Shown here: one piece after another, positions 205 through 16,185 of the stretch
Position numbering within the stretch: position 1 is the stretch's first letter
How the letters are laid out: each line of letters starts with the position of its first letter
Assembly (NCBI RefSeq): GCF_058153355.1
Contig: NZ_CM177019.1
Reading direction: 5' to 3' (one strand)
Length of the DNA: 64,000 bases
The notes under the pieces: model-generated
What the model saw: the letters and a program-made list of their open reading frames with translations, nothing else
What the model was told of the DNA's origin: nothing
The model's database searches: none
Program-made: the position numbers and the translations under genes

Positions 205-1338
205 CTACATCGGCAAGGTTTTCAACAATCCAAACGCCTCTTTCATCCGATCCTCACTGACTACAAAGGCGCGAAGCTGGTCGGCATCGTCAACGCCGCG
301 CGCCACCATTCCCTGGCTTTCGGTACAAATCTGCCAGTGCAAATCCCGACGCTGGGTTTCGCCTGCCAGATGCAGCGGTAATTCCGGCGTTTTGATTTTC
401 ACCAGCATCGCCGGTAGTTTCAGCGACGTGTTATTGCCGAGAAGATTTTTTGCCAGCACCATCGCGCTAAGTTGAATCGGCTGGAGGAACGGCAATACCT
501 GACCGTTAATTTCCGCGCAATCGCCCAGCGCATAAATATCGGCATTACTGGTTTGCAGATAACTATCGACGCAAACGCCGCGATTAATCGTCAGCCCGGC
601 GCGTCGTGCCAGGGCGGTTTCCGGGCGCAGTCCGGTGGCGGCAATTACCGCATCCACTTCGATGCTGCGCTGGCGGTCCAGCGTTGCCAGAATGCCAGAA
701 TCCGTTTTTTCCAGCCCCTGCAACTGAGATTTCAACAGCAGATAAACGCCCATCTCCGTCAACCGATGCTGCAAGCGGCTGCTTACTTCCGGTGGCATTA
801 ACGACGCCAGAATACTGGCAGCGTTGTCGATTAGCGTGACCGCTTTGCCTGCCCGACAAAAATCCATCGCCAGTTCGCTACCAATCAAACCACCGCCTAC
901 AATCAACACCCGTCGGGCATCCCGCAGTTGTGTTTCACAGGCGCGATACTCTTGCTGACTATTTAACGTCAGCATTAACTCACGCCCAGGAACCGGCGGG
1001 ACAAAGGCGTTGGCACCGGTTGCCAGCACTAGCTTGTCGTATTGCCACTGATTATTCTGGCTTTTCACCACATGGGCTTCGGCATCGATATCCGTCACCC
1101 AGGTGTGCGGAAACAGGCGCAGATTAAACTGCTCGGCAAATTCACCCGCCGTCTGGCGGGTAAGGTCGTCGGCACGTTGCCCCTGACTGATCACATGGCT
1201 AAGATCAGGTTTGTTGTACTCATCCATGCTGTCGGCGGCAATCAGAGTCAATGGAATACCGGTATCCTGTTTACGAATATTTTTCACCAGTTGGCGGGCG
1301 GCGAAGCCTGAACCAATGATCACAATGCCGTTGCTCAT
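205..1338 (-). CDS. norW: NADH:flavorubredoxin reductase
   Basis: 377 aa ORF with N-terminal GSGFAA dinucleotide-binding motif; 4-bp overlap with norV upstream; synteny norW-norV-norR. Confidence 0.9.
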
Positions 1339-2774
1339 TTTGCCTCCGATGCCAGTTCGTCAAAGACGTCTTTGCCGAGGGAGCATTCCGGGCACAGGAA
1401 GTTATCCGGGACTTCACTCCACGGCGTTCCTGGCGCAACGTCCTGCATTGGCTCGCCTTTTGCCGGATCGTAAATCCACTGGCAGACACTGCACTGCATC
1501 CGCGGACCGAGATCAGCCGTCGTGGTGGCACAGGTTTCTTCTTTAACCACTGTATTCACCGTGCTTTGCGGCAGCGGTGCGAGCGCCCACTGACGGGCGA
1601 TTTCACGACCGTGTTCACGGCATAATTCCAGTGCATCCTGGTCCGGTCGCCATTTGGCTTTCAGGCTAAGCGACATTTCGAAACCCGCATCTTGCAGGCG
1701 CGTGGAAAGACGATCCACGGCACCGCCGCTCCAGCCGTGAGAGCCGAAAGCACTGGCGCGTTTGTTACGGAAGCGTAATCCGGTCATCTCCTCCACCAGC
1801 CCGGCGATTTTCGGCATCATCACGTTATTCATCGTCGAAGTGCCAACCAGCACGCCTTTTGAGCGGAAGACATTGGTCAGGATTTCGTTTTTATCGCTTC
1901 GGGCGACGTTGAAAATTTTCACCGCCACGCGCGGGTCGGTTTCCGCAATCCCCTGGGCGATAGCGTCAGCCATCATGCGGGTGTTATTCGACACGGTGTC
2001 GTAGAAAATGGTGATTCTGTCTTCCTGATAATCCGCCGCCCATTTCAGGTACAGCTCGACAATTTGCGTCGGGTTATCGCGCCATACCACGCCGTGAGAG
2101 GTGGCAATCATATCGACCGGCAAGTTAAAGCCCAGGATCTCGGTGATTTTCGGCGTTACCAGGCGGCTGAACGGTGTCAGGATATTGGCGTAGTAACGCT
2201 GACACTGCTCGAAAAGCTCGGTCTGATCCACTTCATCGTTGAAGAGATGCTCGTCGCAGTAGTGCTGACCGAAAGCATCGTTACTGAACAGCACCGCGTC
2301 GCCCGTCAGGTAAGTCATCATGCTGTCCGGCCAGTGCAGCATTGGCGTTTCGACAAAAATGAGTTGTTTGCCGTTGCCGATATCCAGCGTGTCGCCGGTT
2401 TTCACCACGTTGAAATTCCACTCTGGATGATGGTGATGACCATTTATTGAGTCGATAGCGTTGGCAGTACAATAGATCGGCGTATCGGGAATTTGTGCCA
2501 TCAGTTCGGTCAGCGCCCCGGCGTGGTCCTCTTCAGCATGGTTAATCACGATGTAATCGATATCCGCCAGATCGATTTCATTACGCAGGTTCTGCACAAA
2601 TTCGCGGCTGAATTTATGGTCGACGGTGTCGATCAGCACGTTTTTTTCTTCGCGAATGAGGTAGCTGTTGTAGCTGCTGCCGCGCAGCGTTTTATATTCC
2701 GTGCCGTGAAAATCACGCACTTCCCAGTCACGTTGACCAACCCAATGAATGTTATTTTTCACCACAATAGACAT
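1335..2774 (-). CDS. norV: Anaerobic nitric oxide reductase flavorubredoxin
   Basis: 479 aa ORF with metallo-beta-lactamase/flavodoxin core and C-terminal rubredoxin CxxC...CxxC motifs; divergent from norR. Confidence 0.92.
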
Positions 2775-2960: not shown

Positions 2961-4475
2961 ATGAGTTTTTCCGTTGATGTGCTGGCGAATATCGCCATCG
3001 AATTGCAGCGTGGGATTGGTCATCAGGATCGTTTTCAGCGCCTGATCACCACGCTGCGTCAGGTGCTGGAGTGCGATGCGTCTGCGTTGCTACGTTACGA
3101 CTCGCGGCAGTTTATTCCGCTTGCCATCGACGGACTGGCAAAGGATGTACTCGGTAGACGCTTTGCGCTGGAAGGGCATCCGCGGCTGGAAGCGATAGCC
3201 CGCGCCGGGGACGTGGTGCGCTTTCCCGCAGACAGCGAATTGCCCGATCCCTATGACGGTTTGATTCCCGGGCAGGAGAGTCTGAAGGTTCACGCCTGCG
3301 TTGGTCTGCCGTTATTTGCCGGACAAAACCTGATCGGTGCATTGACACTCGACGGGATGCAGCCCGATCAGTTCGATGTTTTCAGCGACGAAGAGTTACG
3401 GCTGATTGCCGCGCTGGCAGCGGGAGCGTTAAGCAATGCGTTGCTGATTGAACAACTGGAAAGTCAGAATATGCTGCCGGGCGATGCCGCGCCGTTTGAA
3501 GCGCTGAAAGAGACGCAGATGATCGGCCTGTCGCCAGGCATGACGCAATTGAAAAAAGAGATTGAGATTGTGGCGGCGTCCGATCTCAACGTCCTAATTA
3601 GCGGTGAGACGGGAACCGGTAAGGAGCTGGTGGCGAAAGCGATTCATGAAGCCTCGCCACGGGCGGTGAATCCGCTGGTCTATCTCAACTGTGCCGCACT
3701 GCCGGAAAGTGTGGCGGAAAGTGAACTGTTCGGGCATGTGAAAGGAGCGTTTACTGGCGCTATCAGTAACCGCAGCGGGAAGTTTGAAATGGCGGATAAC
3801 GGCACGCTGTTTCTGGATGAGATCGGCGAGTTGTCGTTGGCATTGCAGGCCAAGCTGCTGAGGGTGTTGCAGTATGGCGATATTCAGCGCGTTGGCGATG
3901 ACCGTAGTTTGCGGGTCGATGTGCGCGTGCTGGCGGCGACTAACCGCGACTTACGCGAAGAGGTGCTGGCAGGGCGATTTCGTGCTGACTTGTTTCATCG
4001 CCTGAGTGTGTTTCCGCTTTCGGTGCCGCCGCTGCGTGAGCGGGGTGATGACGTCATTCTGCTGGCGGGGTATTACTGCGAACAGTGCCGCCTGCGGTTG
4101 GGGCTTTCCCGCGTGGTGTTAAGTTCCGGGGCGCGGAATTTATTGCAACATTATAGTTTTCCGGGAAACGTGCGTGAACTGGAACATGCTATTCACCGGG
4201 CGGTAGTGCTGGCGAGAGCGACCCGCAGCGGCGATGAAGTGATTCTTGAAGCGCAACATTTTGCTTTTCCTGAGGTGACATTGCCGCCGCCAGAAGTGAC
4301 GGCGGTGCCCGTCGTTAAGCAAAACCTGCGTGAAGCGACAGAAGCGTTCCAGCGTGAAACCATTCGCCAGGCACTGGCAAAAAATCATCACAACTGGGCC
4401 GCCTGTGCGCGAATGCTGGAAACTGACGTCGCCAACCTGCATCGGTTGGCGAAACGTCTGGGGCTGAAGGATTAA
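2961..4475 (+). CDS. norR: Sigma54-dependent NO-responsive transcriptional activator
   Basis: 504 aa; N-terminal GAF-like region, central AAA+ domain with GETGTGKE Walker A and GAFTGA motif, C-terminal HTH. Confidence 0.92.
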
Positions 4476-5437
4476 ATAATCCCGGCCTGATAGAAATCCT
4501 GCAGGTTAATCGCGCCGACGAGTTTGCCGTTTTCATCTACCACCGGTGCGGCGGTGATTTTGCGCTTCATCAGGATCTCTTTGGCGTCGATGGCGCGACT
4601 TTGCGATAGCAACGTCGTGCCGCCTGCCGTCATCGCTTCATTAACTGGCGTGGTGAGTGCACCGCCGCCAACCAGCCAGCGACGTAAATCCCCATCGGTA
4701 AAGACGCCTTTCACCAGCCGTTGATCGTCGCACACGGCTACCAGTCCCAGACCGGTGCGACTGAGTTCCAGCATCGCATCCATCACGCTGGCGGTTAACG
4801 CCACCTGCGGGATGGCGTCATCACGGCGCATCAGATGATGCACTTTGTTCAGCAAGCGAGCGCCCAGAGCCCCAGCTGGGTGGGAGCGGGCAAAATCTTC
4901 TTCATTAAATCCGCGCGCCTGCATGACCGCCATCGCCAGCGCGTCGCCCATCATCAGGGTATTGACGGTGCTGGAGGTCGGCGCAAGATGCATCGGGCAG
5001 GCTTCGCGTTCTACAGAGATATCCAGCACCGCTTTCGCCGCCAGGCCCAGCGGTGATGTCGGTTTACCGGTCATCGCCAGCAGCGCGATAGATTTGTCTT
5101 CCAGACGCGGAATAATCAGATCCAGTTCCTTTGCGCCACCGGAGTAAGAGATAAACAGCATCACATCGCGGCTTTCAATCATCCCCAGATCGCCGTGCAG
5201 TGCTTCTGCCGGATGGACAAAAAAAGCAGGCGTGCCGGTACTGGCAAGCGTTGCGGCGATTTTCTTACCAATGTGGCCCGATTTGCCAATTCCCGAAACC
5301 ACCACTTTGCCTTCGCAGTGCAGGATGATATTGGCGGCGCGAACAAAATCATCGCCCAGACGTTCTGGTAAACGGCTTGCTTCCTGCAACTCCAGCATTA
5401 ACGTCTGACGTCCCGCGTTCAGTAGTGCTTCACTCAT
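4472..5437 (-). CDS. gutQ: D-arabinose 5-phosphate isomerase (SIS + CBS domains)
   Basis: 321 aa; SIS motif [14 protein letters not shown] and C-terminal CBS pair; last gene of the srl-gut operon. Confidence 0.9.
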
Positions 5438-6203
5438 TGCTTTCTCCGGTTATGATCACATCGATCCCTTTCTCTTCCAGCGCCTGACGAAACGCCGGAT
5501 CGATACCTGCGTCGGTAATTAGCTTATCGACGCTTTCAAGACTGCAAACTACGTTGGGGCTTTTACGGCCAAACTTTGATGAGTCCGCCATCAAAATCAC
5601 TTCGCGCGCGGCATTGCACATTGCCTTACTGACGGTATAAACCTCGTTGAACGTGGTTACGCCCGCATTGAGATCGATGCCGTCGGTGCCCATAAACAAT
5701 TTATCGAAGCTGAAATGTTCGAAGGCATTCTCTGCCAGTTGCCCGTGAAATGAGGCCGATTTTTTACGAAATGTTCCGCCTGGCATCAGGATAGTTTGTT
5801 CGTTATCCAGTTCGGATAGCGCATTGACGATATGCAGGCTGTTGGTCATTACTGTGATGTTATTAAAGCGCGAGAGCAGGGGGACCATCTGCAAAACGGT
5901 ACTGCCAGCATCAAGAATGATTGAATCGCCATCATGAATAAAACTGACGGCAGCTTCTGCAATCAGCTCTTTCTTGTGGGTGTTGATGAGCGTTTTATGA
6001 TCGATAGGTGGATCGGATTCCTCTTTATTTAACACCACGCCGCCATAGGTACGAATGACGGTTCCAGCATGTTCCAGAATGACCAGATCTTTGCGAATGG
6101 TTGTGCCTGTGGTGTCAAAGTATTGCGCCAATTCTTCAACCGAGCATTTCCCCTGCTTTTGCAGGTACTCCAGAATGGCGGCCTGACGCTGACGAGGTTT
6201 CAT
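5430..6203 (-). CDS. srlR: DeoR-family glucitol operon repressor
   Basis: 257 aa; N-terminal HTH, DeoR-type sugar-binding C-terminus; operon position. Confidence 0.9.
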
Positions 6204-6269
6204 GGGCGTGATTACCTGATTTAGGTTTCAAAATGATAACTTCGCAAGCTAGTAACATTCACAACGAAA

Positions 6270-7899: not shown

Positions 7900-9437
<1,538 letters not shown>

Positions 9438-9674
9438 TTATTGTTTTATTACCAAACGGCAACCTAATCTAATCAGATTGAAAGATTTAAAAGTGTTATT
9501 TTGATCGCAAAATGAAAGATAAATATTTTAATTTGAAAGTTTAAATGAAAGGATAGCGAGGAGAATGAGTTGAGTTATGTAAAGTCCGTATCGGGCAGTG
9601 ACTACCGCTTCCTTGTGCGGGGCGTGATGCTTTACCATACTTGCCCCTGGTTGAATCTGTTAAATGGACCCCTC

Positions 9675-10760
9675 ATGTTCAAGCGTCGTTATGTAACATT
9701 GCTTCCCCTTTTTGTGTTGCTTGCCGCCTGTAGCAGCAAGCCAAAACCTACTGAGACTGAAACGACCACCGGAACGCCGTCTGGCGGCTTCCTGCTTGAG
9801 CCGCAGCACAATGTGATGCAGATGGGCGGCGATTTCGCTAACAACCCGAATGCCCAGCAGTTCATCGACAAAATGGTGAGCAAACACGGTTTCAATCGTC
9901 AGCAGTTGCAGGAAATTCTCTCCCAGGCGAAACGTCTGGATTCGGTATTGCGGCTGATGGATAACCAGGCACCAACCACATCGGTGAAACCGCCATCAGG
10001 TCCGAACGGCGCATGGCTGCGTTATCGCAAAAAATTTATTACGCCGGACAACGTGCAAAACGGCGTGGTTTTCTGGAATCAGTATGAAGACGCGTTGAAT
10101 CGTGCGTGGCAGGTGTATGGTGTACCGCCGGAAATTATCGTCGGGATTATCGGCGTCGAAACTCGCTGGGGACGCGTGATGGGGAAAACTCGTATCCTCG
10201 ATGCGCTGGCAACGTTGTCATTTAACTACCCACGCCGCGCGGAGTATTTCTCTGGTGAGCTGGAAACCTTCTTGCTGATGGCGCGCGACGAGCAGGACGA
10301 TCCGCTCAATCTGAAAGGCTCGTTTGCCGGTGCGATGGGCTACGGTCAGTTTATGCCATCGTCTTATAAACAATATGCAGTGGATTTTAGCGGCGACGGG
10401 CATATCAACCTGTGGGATCCGGTTGATGCCATCGGTAGCGTGGCGAACTATTTCAAAGCGCACGGCTGGGTGAAAGGTGATCAGGTTGCGGTAATGGCAA
10501 ACGGTCAGGCTCCAGGCTTGCCAAATGGCTTCAAAACCAAGTACAGCATTTCGCAGCTTGCCGCGGCAGGTTTAACGCCACAGCAGCCGCTGGGCAACCA
10601 TCAGCAGGCCAGCTTACTGCGCCTGGATGTTGGCACCGGTTACCAGTACTGGTACGGTTTGCCGAACTTCTACACTATCACCCGTTACAATCACAGCACC
10701 CATTACGCAATGGCCGTCTGGCAGTTAGGACAAGCCGTGGCACTGGCGCGCGTTCAGTAA
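9675..10760 (+). CDS. mltB: Membrane-bound lytic murein transglycosylase B (lipoprotein)
   Basis: ORF 9570..10760; start placed at internal Met giving MFKRRYVTLLPLFVLLAACSS lipoprotein signal with lipobox. Confidence 0.88.
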   Translation: MFKRRYVTLLPLFVLLAACSSKPKPTETETTTGTPSGGFLLEPQHNVMQMGGDFANNPNAQQFIDKMVSKHGFNRQQLQEILSQAKRLDSVLRLMDNQAPTTSVKPPSGPNGAWLRYRKKFITPDNVQNGVVFWNQYEDALNRAWQVYGVPPEIIVGIIGVETRWGRVMGKTRILDALATLSFNYPRRAEYFSGELETFLLMARDEQDDPLNLKGSFAGAMGYGQFMPSSYKQYAVDFSGDGHINLWDPVDAIGSVANYFKAHGWVKGDQVAVMANGQAPGLPNGFKTKYSISQLAAAGLTPQQPLGNHQQASLLRLDVGTGYQYWYGLPNFYTITRYNHSTHYAMAVWQLGQAVALARVQ

Positions 10761-10769
10761 CTCTTTGCA

Positions 10770-10800
10770 AGAGGGAGGTTAAACTTCCCTCTGTTTTCTT
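10770..10800. terminator. Hairpin plus T-tract after mltB (possibly bidirectional)
   Basis: agagggagg..cttccctct stem followed by gttttctt. Confidence 0.5.
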
Positions 10801-11038
10801 ACTGTTTATTCGAATGACGTAATTGCTTGATTTTTTTCGACAGCGATATCGCATATCCCAGGCAGACAACGCCTAACGCAGCCTGACCGAAGTCGAAAGG
10901 TTCAAGGTAGCCAGAAGATAAAATTTTACATATCACTGAAACCAGTGCGCCGATGCCACCAATGATGACCCAAATACGCATTTGCGTGGTTTGTTTAAGC
11001 ACGTTTTGTGGCGTGTTATCCGTTTTCTTTGTTGCCAT
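10799..11038 (-). CDS. Hypothetical small two-helix membrane protein (79 aa)
   Basis: Internal Met of ORF 10799..11296 is preceded by GGAGAG 6 nt upstream; MATKKTD... followed by two hydrophobic helices; convergent with mltB. Confidence 0.4.
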   Translation of the reverse strand: MATKKTDNTPQNVLKQTTQMRIWVIIGGIGALVSVICKILSSGYLEPFDFGQAALGVVCLGYAISLSKKIKQLRHSNKQ

Positions 11039-11220
11039 TGCTATTCTCTCCCTGTGAATACATATCAATGTGAACGCGGCATGGTAGCGCTTTTTCTTTA
11101 CCGACTGGTCGCAACAGTCTTTTTCCGGAACGCAACTCGTAAAATCAATCGCTCGTCCCCATCTTCTGCGGGAAAGTGCTATCTTGTCCGGCATATATTT
11201 TTTGACTGACTGAGGTTGTG

Positions 11221-11718
11221 ATGATTGACAGTGAACTGATGCAGTTAAGCGAACAGGTAGGGCAGGCGCTGAAAGCCCGTGGCGCAACCGTAACAACTGC
11301 CGAGTCTTGTACCGGCGGTTGGGTAGCGAAAGTGATTACCGATATTGCCGGTAGTTCCGCCTGGTTTGAACGCGGATTTGTCACCTACAGTAACGAAGCC
11401 AAAGCGCAGATGATCGGCGTACGCGAAGAGACGCTGGCGCAGCACGGCGCGGTGAGCGAACCCGTCGTGGTGGAAATGGCGATAGGCGCACTGAAAGCGG
11501 CTCGTGCTGATTATGCCGTGTCTATCAGCGGTATCGCTGGGCCGGATGGCGGCAGTGAAGAGAAACCTGTCGGCACTGTCTGGTTTGCTTTTGCCACTGC
11601 CCGCGGCGAAGGCATTACCCGCCGGGAATGCTTCAGCGGTGACCGTGATGCGGTGCGTCGTCAGGCTACTGCGTATGCATTGCAAACCTTGTGGCAACAA
11701 TTTCTACAAAACACTTGA
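11221..11718 (+). CDS. pncC: NMN amidohydrolase (CinA-like C-terminal domain)
   Basis: 165 aa; ESCTGG motif; immediately upstream of recA. Confidence 0.9.
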   Translation: MIDSELMQLSEQVGQALKARGATVTTAESCTGGWVAKVITDIAGSSAWFERGFVTYSNEAKAQMIGVREETLAQHGAVSEPVVVEMAIGALKAARADYAVSISGIAGPDGGSEEKPVGTVWFAFATARGEGITRRECFSGDRDAVRRQATAYALQTLWQQFLQNT

Positions 11719-12859
<1,141 letters not shown>

Positions 12860-12878
12860 TCGTCTTGTTTGATACACA

Positions 12879-12908
12879 AGGGTCGCATCTGCGGCCCTTT
12901 TGCTTTTT
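12879..12908 (+). terminator. Rho-independent terminator after recA
   Basis: gggtcgcatctgcggccc hairpin followed by ttttgcttttt. Confidence 0.7.
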
Positions 12909-12926
12909 AAGTTGTAAGGGTATGCC

Positions 12927-13427
12927 ATGACAGAATCAACATCCCGTCGCCCGGCATATGCTCGCCTGTTGGATCGTGCGGTACGCATTCTGGCGGTGCG
13001 CGATCACAGTGAGCAAGAACTGCGGCGTAAACTCGCGGCACCGATTATGGGCAAAAATGGCCCGGAAGAGATTGATGCCACGGCAGAAGATTACGAGCGT
13101 GTTATTGCCTGGTGCCATGAACATGGCTATCTCGATGACAGCCGATTTGTGGCGCGCTTTATCGCCAGCCGGAGCCGCAAAGGTTACGGTCCGGCGCGTA
13201 TCCGTCAGGAACTGAATCAGAAAGGTCTTTCCCGCGAGGCGACAGAAAAAGCGATGCGTGAATGTGACATCGACTGGTGTGCACTGGCGCGCGATCAGGC
13301 GACGCGAAAATATGGCGAACCTTTGCCAACTGTCTTTTCAGAAAAAGTTAAGATCCAGCGTTTTCTGCTCTATCGCGGCTATCTGATGGAGGATATCCAG
13401 GATATTTGGCGAAATTTTGCCGACTGA
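12927..13427 (+). CDS. recX: RecA regulator RecX
   Basis: 166 aa ORF directly downstream of recA. Confidence 0.92.
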
Positions 13428-13554
13428 ACGCATACGGTATTTTACTTCCCAGTCAAGAAAACTTATCTTATTCCCACTTTTCAGTTACCAGCCCGGCGGT
13501 TAAGACACGCTGTAGCTGGTGGCGATATTTCGTTAGCTTGATTTCAGGATAATT

Positions 13555-16185
13555 ATGAGCAAGAGCACCGCTGAGATCCGTCAGGCGTTTCTCGACTTTT
13601 TCCATAGTAAGGGACATCAGGTAGTTGCCAGCAGCTCCCTGGTACCCCATAACGACCCAACTTTGTTGTTTACCAACGCCGGGATGAACCAGTTCAAGGA
13701 TGTGTTCCTTGGGCTCGACAAGCGTAATTATTCCCGCGCTACCACTTCCCAACGCTGCGTGCGTGCGGGTGGTAAACACAACGACCTGGAAAACGTCGGT
13801 TACACCGCGCGTCACCATACCTTCTTCGAAATGCTGGGCAACTTCAGCTTCGGCGACTATTTCAAACACGATGCTATTCAGTTTGCATGGGAACTGCTGA
13901 CCAGCGAAAAATGGTTTGCCCTGCCGAAAGAGCGTCTATGGGTTACCGTCTATGAAAGCGACGACGAAGCCTACGAAATCTGGGAAAAAGAAGTAGGGAT
14001 CCCGCGCGAACGTATTATTCGCATCGGCGATAACAAAGGTGCGCCATACGCATCTGACAACTTCTGGCAGATGGGTGACACTGGTCCGTGTGGCCCGTGC
14101 ACCGAAATCTTTTACGATCACGGCGACCACATTTGGGGTGGCCCTCCGGGAAGTCCGGAAGAAGACGGCGACCGTTACATTGAGATTTGGAACATCGTCT
14201 TCATGCAGTTCAACCGCCAGGCAGATGGCACGATGGAACCGCTGCCGAAGCCGTCTGTAGATACCGGTATGGGTCTGGAGCGTATTGCTGCGGTGCTGCA
14301 ACACGTTAACTCTAACTATGACATTGACCTGTTCCGCACGCTGATCCAGGCAGTAGCGAAAGTCACTGGTGCGACCGATCTGAGCAATAAATCACTGCGC
14401 GTAATCGCTGACCACATTCGTTCTTGTGCGTTCCTGATCGCGGATGGCGTAATGCCGTCCAACGAAAACCGTGGTTATGTACTGCGTCGTATCATTCGTC
14501 GCGCAGTGCGTCACGGTAATATGCTCGGCGCGAAAGAAACCTTCTTCTACAAACTGGTTGGTCCGCTGATCGACGTTATGGGCTCTGCGGGTGAAGACCT
14601 GAAACGCCAGCAGGCACAGGTTGAGCAGGTGCTGAAGACTGAAGAAGAACAGTTTGCCCGCACTCTGGAGCGCGGTCTGGCGCTGCTGGACGAAGAGCTG
14701 GCGAAACTTTCTGGCGATACGCTGGATGGCGAAACTGCTTTCCGTCTGTACGACACCTACGGTTTCCCAGTTGACCTGACGGCTGATGTTTGTCGTGAAC
14801 GCAACATCAAAGTTGACGAAGCTGGTTTTGAAGCAGCAATGGAAGAGCAGCGTCGTCGTGCGCGCGAAGCCAGCGGCTTTGGTGCCGATTACAACGCAAT
14901 GATCCGTGTTGACAGTGCATCTGAATTTAAAGGCTATGACCATCTGGAACTGAACGGCAAAGTGACTGCGCTGTTTGTTGATGGTAAAGCGGTTGATGCC
15001 ATCAATGCAGGCCAGGAAGCTGTGGTCGTGCTGGATCAAACGCCATTCTATGCGGAATCTGGCGGTCAGGTTGGCGATAAAGGCGAACTGAAAGGCGTTA
15101 ACTTCTCCTTTGCGGTGGAAGATACGCAGAAATACGGCCAGGCGATTGGTCACATCGGTAAACTTGCTGCGGGTTCTCTGAAAGTGGGCGACGCGGTGCA
15201 GGCTGATGTTGATGAGGCTCGTCGCGCTCGTATTCGTCTGAATCACTCCGCAACGCACCTGATGCACGCTGCGCTGCGCCAGGTTCTGGGTACTCATGTA
15301 TCGCAGAAAGGTTCACTGGTTAACGACAAAGTGCTGCGCTTCGACTTTTCACACAACGAAGCGATGAAACCAGAAGAGATTCGTGCGGTTGAAGACCTGG
15401 TGAACGCGCAGATTCGCCGTAACTTGCCGATCGAAACCAACATCATGGATCTCGAAGCGGCGAAAGCGAAAGGTGCGATGGCGCTGTTTGGCGAGAAGTA
15501 TGATGAGCGCGTACGCGTGCTGAGCATGGGCGATTTCTCCACCGAGCTGTGTGGCGGTACTCACGCCAGCCGCACCGGTGATATTGGTCTGTTCCGCATC
15601 ATCTCTGAATCGGGTACTGCTGCAGGTGTTCGTCGTATCGAAGCGGTAACCGGAGAAGGCGCTATCGCCACCGTTCATGCAGACAGCGATCGCTTAAGCG
15701 AAGTCGCACATCTGTTGAAAGGCGATAGCAATAATCTGGCTGATAAAGTGCGCTCAGTACTAGAACGTACGCGTCAGCTGGAAAAAGAGTTACAACAGCT
15801 TAAAGAACAAGCTGCCGCACAGGAGAGCGCAAATCTTTCCAGTAAGGCAATTGATGTTAATGGTGTTAAGCTGTTGGTTAGCGAGCTTAGCGGTGTTGAG
15901 CCGAAAATGTTGCGTACCATGGTTGACGATTTAAAAAATCAGCTGGGGTCGACAATTATCGTGCTGGCAACGGTAGCCGAAGGTAAGGTTTCTCTGATTG
16001 CAGGCGTATCTAAGGACGTCACAGATCGTGTGAAAGCCGGGGAACTGATTGGTATGGTCGCTCAGCAGGTGGGCGGCAAGGGTGGTGGACGTCCTGACAT
16101 GGCGCAAGCCGGTGGTACGGATGCTGCGGCCTTACCTGCAGCGTTAGCCAGTGTGAAAGGCTGGGTCAGCGCGAAATTGCAATAA
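13555..16185 (+). CDS. alaS: Alanine--tRNA ligase
   Basis: 876 aa; class II aaRS motifs and C-terminal DHHA1-like region; synteny recX-alaS-csrA. Confidence 0.97.

Follow-up and report, generated by a model that had tools for sequence, protein, structure and literature searches.

A probable two-helix membrane protein gene between mltB and pncC that is conserved across three enterobacterial genera and absent from most Escherichia coli genomes

The 79-codon open reading frame (ORF) that lies between mltB and pncC in the window (the whole 64,000-nucleotide stretch of DNA that was analyzed) is, judging from its sequence and from comparisons with its homologues, very probably a genuine gene for a small membrane protein with two helices. 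The original prediction was that this may be an overlooked small membrane protein. The second half of that description stands, but the gene is neither overlooked nor unannotated: it is already known to databases as a RefSeq "hypothetical protein" and, in Salmonella, as STsORF92. It seems to be unfamiliar only because K-12 and ~90% of E. coli have deleted it. With moderate confidence, we interpret it as a stand-alone gene for a conditionally expressed, dispensable inner-membrane helical hairpin that probably acts by binding a membrane partner. The features of the locus that are referred to below are as follows.

10770 to 10792, plus strand: intrinsic-terminator hairpin of mltB, AGAGGGAGGTTAAACTTCCCTCT, with a 10-bp stem, followed by GTTTTCTT.
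~10794 to 11118, no strand assigned: segment absent from K-12 and ~90% of E. coli, delimited by alignment with K-12, which has 9 nt in its place.
10799 to 11038, minus strand: coding sequence of the probable 79-aa small membrane protein, from the ORF list and an identical PGAP call in strain 2020CK-00188 (WP_032184982.1).
10832 to 10838, minus strand: A7 homopolymer in codons 68 to 70 (TCG AAA AAA ATC), at which natural +1/−1 frameshift alleles occur.
11046 to 11052, minus strand: Shine-Dalgarno (SD)-like GGGAGAG, 7 nt 5′ of the ATG of the 79-aa ORF and kept in all Escherichia alleles.
11119 to 11217, no strand assigned: noncoding block adjoining the pncC start, conserved in Escherichia, Salmonella, and Citrobacter and retained in K-12.

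The gene order in the window is srlA, mltB (plus strand), the 79-aa ORF (minus strand), pncC (plus strand), recA, and recX. The ORF begins with an ATG at positions 11038 to 11036 and, after 79 codons, ends with a TAA at 10801 to 10799. The translation given in the original prediction was reproduced exactly, and the ribosome binding site (RBS) in front of the start codon was confirmed. The start codon and RBS are both kept in every Escherichia allele, and GGAGAG or a GGAG/AAGGA equivalent precedes the homologous start in Salmonella, Citrobacter, and the more distant loci L014 and L017. A 165-aa version of the frame, extended upstream to a TTG, had been considered spurious, and this is borne out by three observations: PGAP calls the 79-aa form, homologues from other genera begin at the equivalent Met, and the DNA upstream is the conserved noncoding block, which is without conserved codons. 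At the other end, the stop codon is 6 nt from the mltB terminator hairpin, at which the frame had correctly been said to end. This hairpin is a canonical terminator for the plus strand only; on the strand of the 79-aa ORF it is followed by TGCAAAGAG, without a T-tract, and no canonical terminator was found on that strand.

A promoter scan upstream of the 79-aa ORF detected no sigma-70 consensus promoter, and manual inspection gave nothing convincing. The 80 nt immediately upstream of the ORF show no conservation between genera beyond the SD-like element, and the conserved block at 11119 to 11217 is probably the promoter or leader of pncC and is not demonstrably part of the transcription unit of the ORF. 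SOS control was considered, given the proximity of recA, and was ruled out, since the mltB-pncC spacer contains no LexA box (CTG-N10-CAG), while the recA box at 11721 was detected as a positive control. The palindrome GACTG-N7-CAGTC at 11103 to 11119 was rejected as an operator because it is not conserved even within Escherichia. On the plus strand, the same positions form a hairpin (GACTGGTCGCAACAGTC) followed by TTTTTCC, between the 79-aa ORF and the pncC-proximal block. This terminator-like hairpin, which lies at the right-hand boundary of the segment missing from K-12 and has arms that are not conserved in all Escherichia alleles, might halt mltB read-through into pncC.

In order to determine how the frame evolves, we compared nine Escherichia alleles (those of the window, ST131, EC5931, VE-T9, GF4-3, E. 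albertii, E. whittamii, and two cryptic-clade genomes). The 36 variable sites in the ORF are distributed 9:4:23 over codon positions 1, 2, and 3 (chi-square P = 3e-4), and the Nei-Gojobori dN/dS ratio is 0.05 to 0.27 for all Escherichia pairs with appreciable divergence. Fisher tests detect an excess of synonymous changes, with P values of 1e-6 to 3e-5 in Escherichia and of 1e-6 to 9e-3 over all comparisons. The replacements that do occur are conservative (I/M, I/V, S/A, T/I, and G/S) and are concentrated in helix 1 (TM1), and the loop and TM2 are nearly invariant, with residues 40 to 74 almost unchanged despite synonymous changes. Of the six reading frames, only the annotated one is free of stop codons in 16 of 16 alleles; the other five are full of them. 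Salmonella versus Citrobacter comparisons give dN/dS values of 0.17 to 0.27 at a dS of ~1, and comparisons within Salmonella give values of 0.26 to 0.53, with one further pair at ~1, a value that rests on very few changes. The E. coli and Salmonella proteins are ~53% identical (dN of ~0.4). Although synonymous sites are at or near saturation between genera, the frame, its length, its start codon, and the SD-like element persist. The codon-level conservation that had been proposed as a check on the gene is thus present, and these comparisons indicate that purifying selection on the 79-aa frame is real but moderate and that the protein evolves fast.

A word-indexed search with the single protein returned Escherichia matches only. 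An exhaustive HMMER search of 1.84 billion representatives returned 9 representative clusters, which include more distant members of 80 to 96 aa. A profile built from Escherichia sequences only matches the Citrobacter and Salmonella cluster representatives (P0023 to P0026) with E values of 4.7e-17 to 2.3e-10, and the family profile matches members from these two genera at E values of ~1e-33 to 1e-37. The profile search identified 57 proteins, mostly of 79 to 84 aa. Their sources within Escherichia are E. fergusonii, E. albertii, E. whittamii, E. marmotae, and the cryptic clades. Salmonella enterica is represented by subspecies enterica, salamae, and indica; thousands of Salmonella contigs bear the orthologue, and several alleles occur on at least 1,000 contigs each. 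The remaining sources are Citrobacter telavivensis, C. amalonaticus, other Citrobacter, an enterobacterial lineage (L014/P0027), and Affinibrenneria salicis. The family shares the motif LKQ-x2-Q-[LM]-R-x-W-x-I-[IV]-G-G on the helix 1 side, S-[SAT]-G-Y-x-E-P-[FY]-D-x-G-Q at the turn, and, further, L-G-[LV]-[GV]-C-L-G-Y and S-K-K-I-x2-L-[RQ]. The homologues are named "hypothetical protein" or occasionally "membrane protein," and a single UniRef entry, for the E. whittamii protein, carries the automatic name "Holin."

The position of the gene is conserved along with its sequence. In E. fergusonii, E. albertii, E. whittamii, Salmonella enterica, and Citrobacter, intact homologues of 79 to 84 aa occupy the corresponding site (recA-pncC <> ORF > < mltB). 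The longer order recX-recA-pncC <> ORF > < mltB-srlA is kept in Citrobacter and Salmonella, and recX-recA-pncC <> ORF > < mltB is kept in E. fergusonii. The neighbors vary in L014, L017, and L020, with insertions in L014 and L020, and the Affinibrenneria homologue lies elsewhere in its genome, in a different context. Since the neighbors differ between lineages, there is no fixed operon partner, and guilt by association was discarded as a route to function.

Within E. coli, the distribution of the gene is very uneven. A megablast search with positions 10700 to 11300 against 5,426 complete E. coli genomes matched the pncC part in 5,415 of them and the full stretch in only 573, and a sensitive blastn search with the ORF region alone matched exactly 573 genomes. 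The mltB-pncC spacer of K-12 (MC1061) is 144 bp long and contains no feature, compared with ~460 bp in the window; the ~325-bp K-12 deletion takes out the whole 79-aa ORF, its RBS, and ~70 nt upstream. In sampled noncarriers, the match begins at query position 437 in all but one (474), and this identical starting point suggests that noncarrier E. coli strains share a single deletion allele.

The original prediction also held that there is no annotated gene here, which proved to be incorrect. In 60 of 60 sampled rows from the 573 carriers, a "hypothetical protein" feature lies under the match. Strain 2020CK-00188, which is 100% identical, has a 240-nt coding sequence (WP_032184982.1) annotated between mltB and pncC; ST131 genomes have WP_000985460.1; and other lineages have WP_000201679.1 or WP_171460468.1. 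The last three are alleles that are 89 to 94% identical to the window product, and all four RefSeq entries represent the same gene and are without a name, family, or function. A view based on K-12 shows no gene at this position because K-12 has no such DNA.

The window allele itself is uncommon, being found at ≥99% identity in only 7 of the 5,426 E. coli genomes. In a comparison of window positions 8000 to 14000, the recX-recA-pncC-ORF-mltB region is 97.9% identical over 4.4 kb to that of E. fergusonii (L022), while the values against K-12 (L002) are 97.4% and 96.4%, and the window protein is one residue apart from the common E. fergusonii allele. The ORFs of ST131 (L008) and of the E. albertii type strain NBRC 107761 (L006) differ by a single nucleotide, and these two genomes are 97 to 100% identical over ~1 kb that runs from the 5′ end of pncC through the ORF and the 3′ half of mltB, with flanks that are 88 to 95% identical. 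From the sequences, this similarity looks like recent interspecies recombination at the locus, which could be a route by which some E. coli strains carry the gene.

The description of the protein in the original prediction, with a polar N terminus, two hydrophobic helices, and a basic C terminus, agrees with its hydropathy, its K/R counts, and an AlphaFold2 model. Hydrophobic stretches lie at approximately residues 22 to 40 and 51 to 67; there are 4 K/R residues in the N terminus, none in the loop (which has 2 D/E residues), and 5 in the C terminus. The AlphaFold2 model, for which 19 homologues were supplied, has a helix at residues 9 to 42, a four-residue turn, and a second helix at residues 47 to 78, with modest confidence (mean pLDDT of 67). 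Taken together, the positive-inside rule and the modeled hairpin suggest that the protein is a hairpin in the inner membrane whose N and C termini are both cytoplasmic.

Family searches with the protein and 19 family members against Pfam, NCBIfam, PHROGs, and PADLOC gave nothing above threshold. For the 79-aa protein, the best Pfam match is IncE (16.5 bits versus a cutoff of 27), the best NCBIfam match has an E value of 7.6, and PADLOC gave no match. The best PDB sequence profile match (E = 2.8) and the best PDB match in a Foldseek search with the AlphaFold2 model (E = 4.2) are chance-level helical matches. No partner, family, or structural analogue emerged from the Pfam, NCBIfam, PDB, and Foldseek searches.

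The rival explanation that survives best, although we consider it unlikely, is that the gene encodes a holin-like or otherwise membrane-damaging protein, i.e., that it is a cryptic lysis or toxin gene that is kept tightly silent and whose product oligomerizes via its glycine-rich helices and permeabilizes the inner membrane when it is induced. Class II holins (e.g., S21 of phage 21) are small proteins with two TM helices, cytoplasmic termini, and a highly basic C-terminal tail, and the 79-aa protein has the same predicted architecture; however, two TM helices with a charged C-terminal tail are a generic feature that is not diagnostic of holins. The PHROG family phrog_1129 ("holin") matches residues 13 to 78, which is nearly the full length, with an E value of 1e-3 and 20 bits. 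This hit is borderline, and at E ≤ 1 it extends to 8 of the 19 family members, all of them near-identical Escherichia proteins; the Salmonella, Citrobacter, and other members are unmatched, and we therefore do not count it as evidence for the family. Also in favor of this rival is the name "Holin" of the UniRef entry for the E. whittamii protein. The very low transcription of the Salmonella orthologue and its lack of a transcription start site (TSS) would fit a repressed toxic gene, and the neighboring mltB encodes a murein transglycosylase. However, MltB is a lipoprotein exported by the Sec and Lol systems and needs no holin, and the small gene is convergent with mltB, is not cotranscribed with it, and is separated from it by an ABC transporter in L014.

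The genomic setting also differs from that of class II holin genes. The locus is part of the core chromosome in all genera, with no prophage, no lysis cassette, and no adjacent cotranscribed endolysin gene, and there is no Pfam holin family match, no PADLOC hit, and no family-wide profile match. A tblastn search of 50,697 phage records found no annotated homologue; its only matches are two unannotated 1.9-kb fragments, and a phage origin was ruled out on this basis. We do not adopt the holin label because the profile match is confined to Escherichia, annotated phage homologues are absent, the locus belongs to the core chromosome, and the gene, which converges with mltB, can be separated from mltB. 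The two fragments (OR845620.1 and OR845594.1, "Escherichia phage ECO95 1-6-1") carry the two halves of a homologue at their record ends, with 53 to 58% identity, which suggests that they are packaged or contaminating DNA of a non-Escherichia enterobacterium and not a phage gene.

The expression record of the family comes from Salmonella. In their census of small proteins, Venturini et al. (2020, microLife, Tables S1 and S2; PMC10117436) list the SL1344 orthologue as STsORF92, at 2999268 to 2999513, with a length of 81 aa. In that census, it is an in silico prediction made by sPepFinder only, with no Ribo-seq call in LB, SPI-1, or SPI-2 medium, and it carries the remark "independent; no tss, low transcription." Dual RNA-seq during infection shows no significant change, the TraDIS log2 fold change is 0.01 with a false discovery rate (FDR) of 1, and the entry is listed without an MG1655 counterpart and is not discussed in the main text (PMC10117436). 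STsORF92 occupies the same position as the 79-aa ORF, between pncC (ygaD) and mltB, and, at the ~53% identity given above, it shares LKQ..QLRLW.IGG, SSGY.EPYDGGQ, LGLGCLGY, and SKKI with the 79-aa protein; the N- and C-terminal tails differ, and the Salmonella tail (...HLQAENQPKKP) is less basic. It lacks an MG1655 counterpart only because K-12 has deleted the gene, and counterparts do exist in carrier E. coli strains and in other Escherichia species. A literature search found no mention of the WP accessions or of STsORF92 in the text of papers, and the orthologue is absent from the accessible portions of the supplementary files of Baek 2017 and of a Salmonella small-protein proteomics paper.

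These expression data, together with a series of disrupted alleles, bear on a second rival explanation, namely that the ORF is decaying or was never functional, that its frame persists by shared ancestry or hitchhiking, and that the locus is heading for loss. Frameshifts at the A7 run replace the basic C-terminal tail. A8 alleles encode 77 aa in both EC5931 (WP_236926492.1) and Escherichia sp. E1130 and, on 12 E. marmotae contigs, 74 aa, while A6 alleles read through into mltB antisense; some Salmonella clusters, including a Typhi allele, have frameshifts in or after helix 2. Such alleles, the deletion in ~90% of E. coli genomes, the absence of detected translation or a phenotype for STsORF92, and the single Salmonella pair with a dN/dS of ~1 are all what decay would predict. 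The repeated loss and the frameshift alleles do show that selection is weak or conditional. In contrast, a frame that was merely carried along should not be the only one of six that stays open, nor should its length and its start signals be kept between genera in which synonymous sites are saturated. Several independent comparisons give a significant excess of synonymous changes, and the replacements are conservative and lie in TM1, with a nearly invariant loop and TM2. We therefore regard decay as very unlikely.

We can essentially discount a third explanation, that the conserved element is noncoding (a regulatory RNA, an RNA pair resembling a type I toxin-antitoxin system, or a spacer that insulates the convergent mltB transcription unit and the divergent pncC unit from each other) and the ORF is incidental, since the substitutions have coding-type 3-nt periodicity, the protein is conserved between genera while the DNA outside the ORF is not (except for the pncC-proximal block), and the palindrome upstream is not conserved even within Escherichia. 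What could be cited for it is that no promoter for the ORF was found and that the plus strand within the ORF contains several weak terminator-like hairpins (5 in a 700-nt scan versus 0.8 expected, with two of the 5 being the mltB terminator counted twice). On the strand opposite the ORF, where a type I antitoxin RNA might lie, only these weak hairpins were seen. Positions 10500 to 11500 gave no Rfam match at E ≤ 1, and an RNA element was set aside for lack of such a match. Moreover, the toxins of type I toxin-antitoxin systems are usually under 60 aa with a single TM segment, and a single-copy locus encoding 79 aa with two helices is unlike the known examples.

Under the reading that we favor, a conditionally expressed inner-membrane hairpin, the protein would have its K/R-rich polar N terminus and its basic C terminus on the cytoplasmic side and the short acidic turn, SSGY-x-EP-[FY]-D-x-G-Q, on the periplasmic side, flanked by the glycine-rich helices W-x-I-I-G-G and L-G-x-x-C-L-G-Y. 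The presence of the gene at the pncC-mltB junction would go back to the ancestor of the group formed by Escherichia, Salmonella, and Citrobacter; it would have been retained there under moderate purifying selection and yet be dispensable, and one ~325-bp deletion would have taken it out of most E. coli strains. In standard culture, its expression would be absent or very weak. The protein would have no catalytic capacity and, like many small membrane proteins, would probably act under a specific condition by packing its helices against a larger inner-membrane protein or against another copy of itself. We infer that it most likely acts by helix-helix association, either with a membrane partner or with itself, because it is small, lacks a catalytic domain, and has glycine-rich helices and a periplasmic turn that are conserved.

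Small regulatory inner-membrane proteins of enterobacteria, such as MgrB, AcrZ, and MgtS, are usually under 50 aa and have one helix. By analogy, the 79-aa protein may belong to the same broad class, whose members are likewise small, nonenzymatic, stand-alone, condition-dependent, and dispensable in rich medium, although it is longer, has two helices, and has no sequence relationship to them.

A bolder version of conditional expression, which we consider distinctly unlikely, is that the gene encodes a tightly silenced membrane-active (holin- or toxin-like) or envelope-modulating factor whose expression is confined to a particular stress or host condition, with slippage at the A7 tract acting as a switch that changes the cytoplasmic tail. 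If this were true, retention of the gene in E. albertii, E. fergusonii, Salmonella, and pandemic ST131, compared with its deletion in most other E. coli strains, would reflect a real ecological or virulence-related difference.

The direct importance of these results is modest, in that an apparent missed gene is a catalogued, uncharacterized small membrane protein. What they add to existing records is the link between the Escherichia gene and Salmonella STsORF92, a quantitative measure of codon-level constraint across three genera, and a presence/absence map in which 573 of 5,426 complete E. coli genomes, ST131 among them, carry the gene. The K-12 deletion explains why K-12-centered knowledge is silent about it, and any function that is found would lie outside what the standard laboratory strain can show.

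Several of the divergent loci contain additional genes. In L014 (Logan/ENA contigs), a znuABC-like metal-transporter cluster (ZnuA / ABC-3 / ABC_tran, positions 3268 to 5715) lies between the small gene and mltB, and the small gene still adjoins pncC. In L020 (Salmonella enterica GCA_049086555.1), a 454-aa ORF (positions 1061 to 2425, plus strand) lies between pncC and the small gene, co-oriented with the latter and 75 nt upstream of it, and accompanies the allele group with the N terminus MSQEKTQASLQQ. This 454-aa ORF matches no family in Pfam or PADLOC; its best Pfam match is a subthreshold one to holin-superfamily-III at its N terminus (E = 0.07). The 78-aa ORF that follows the Affinibrenneria homologue shows no evident resemblance when its translation is inspected. 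In E. fergusonii (L022, positions 4375 to 6240), a 54-aa ORF, an SIS/CBS gene, and a sigma-54 activator lie beyond mltB where the window has srlAEB, so that synteny between E. fergusonii and the window breaks immediately upstream of mltB.
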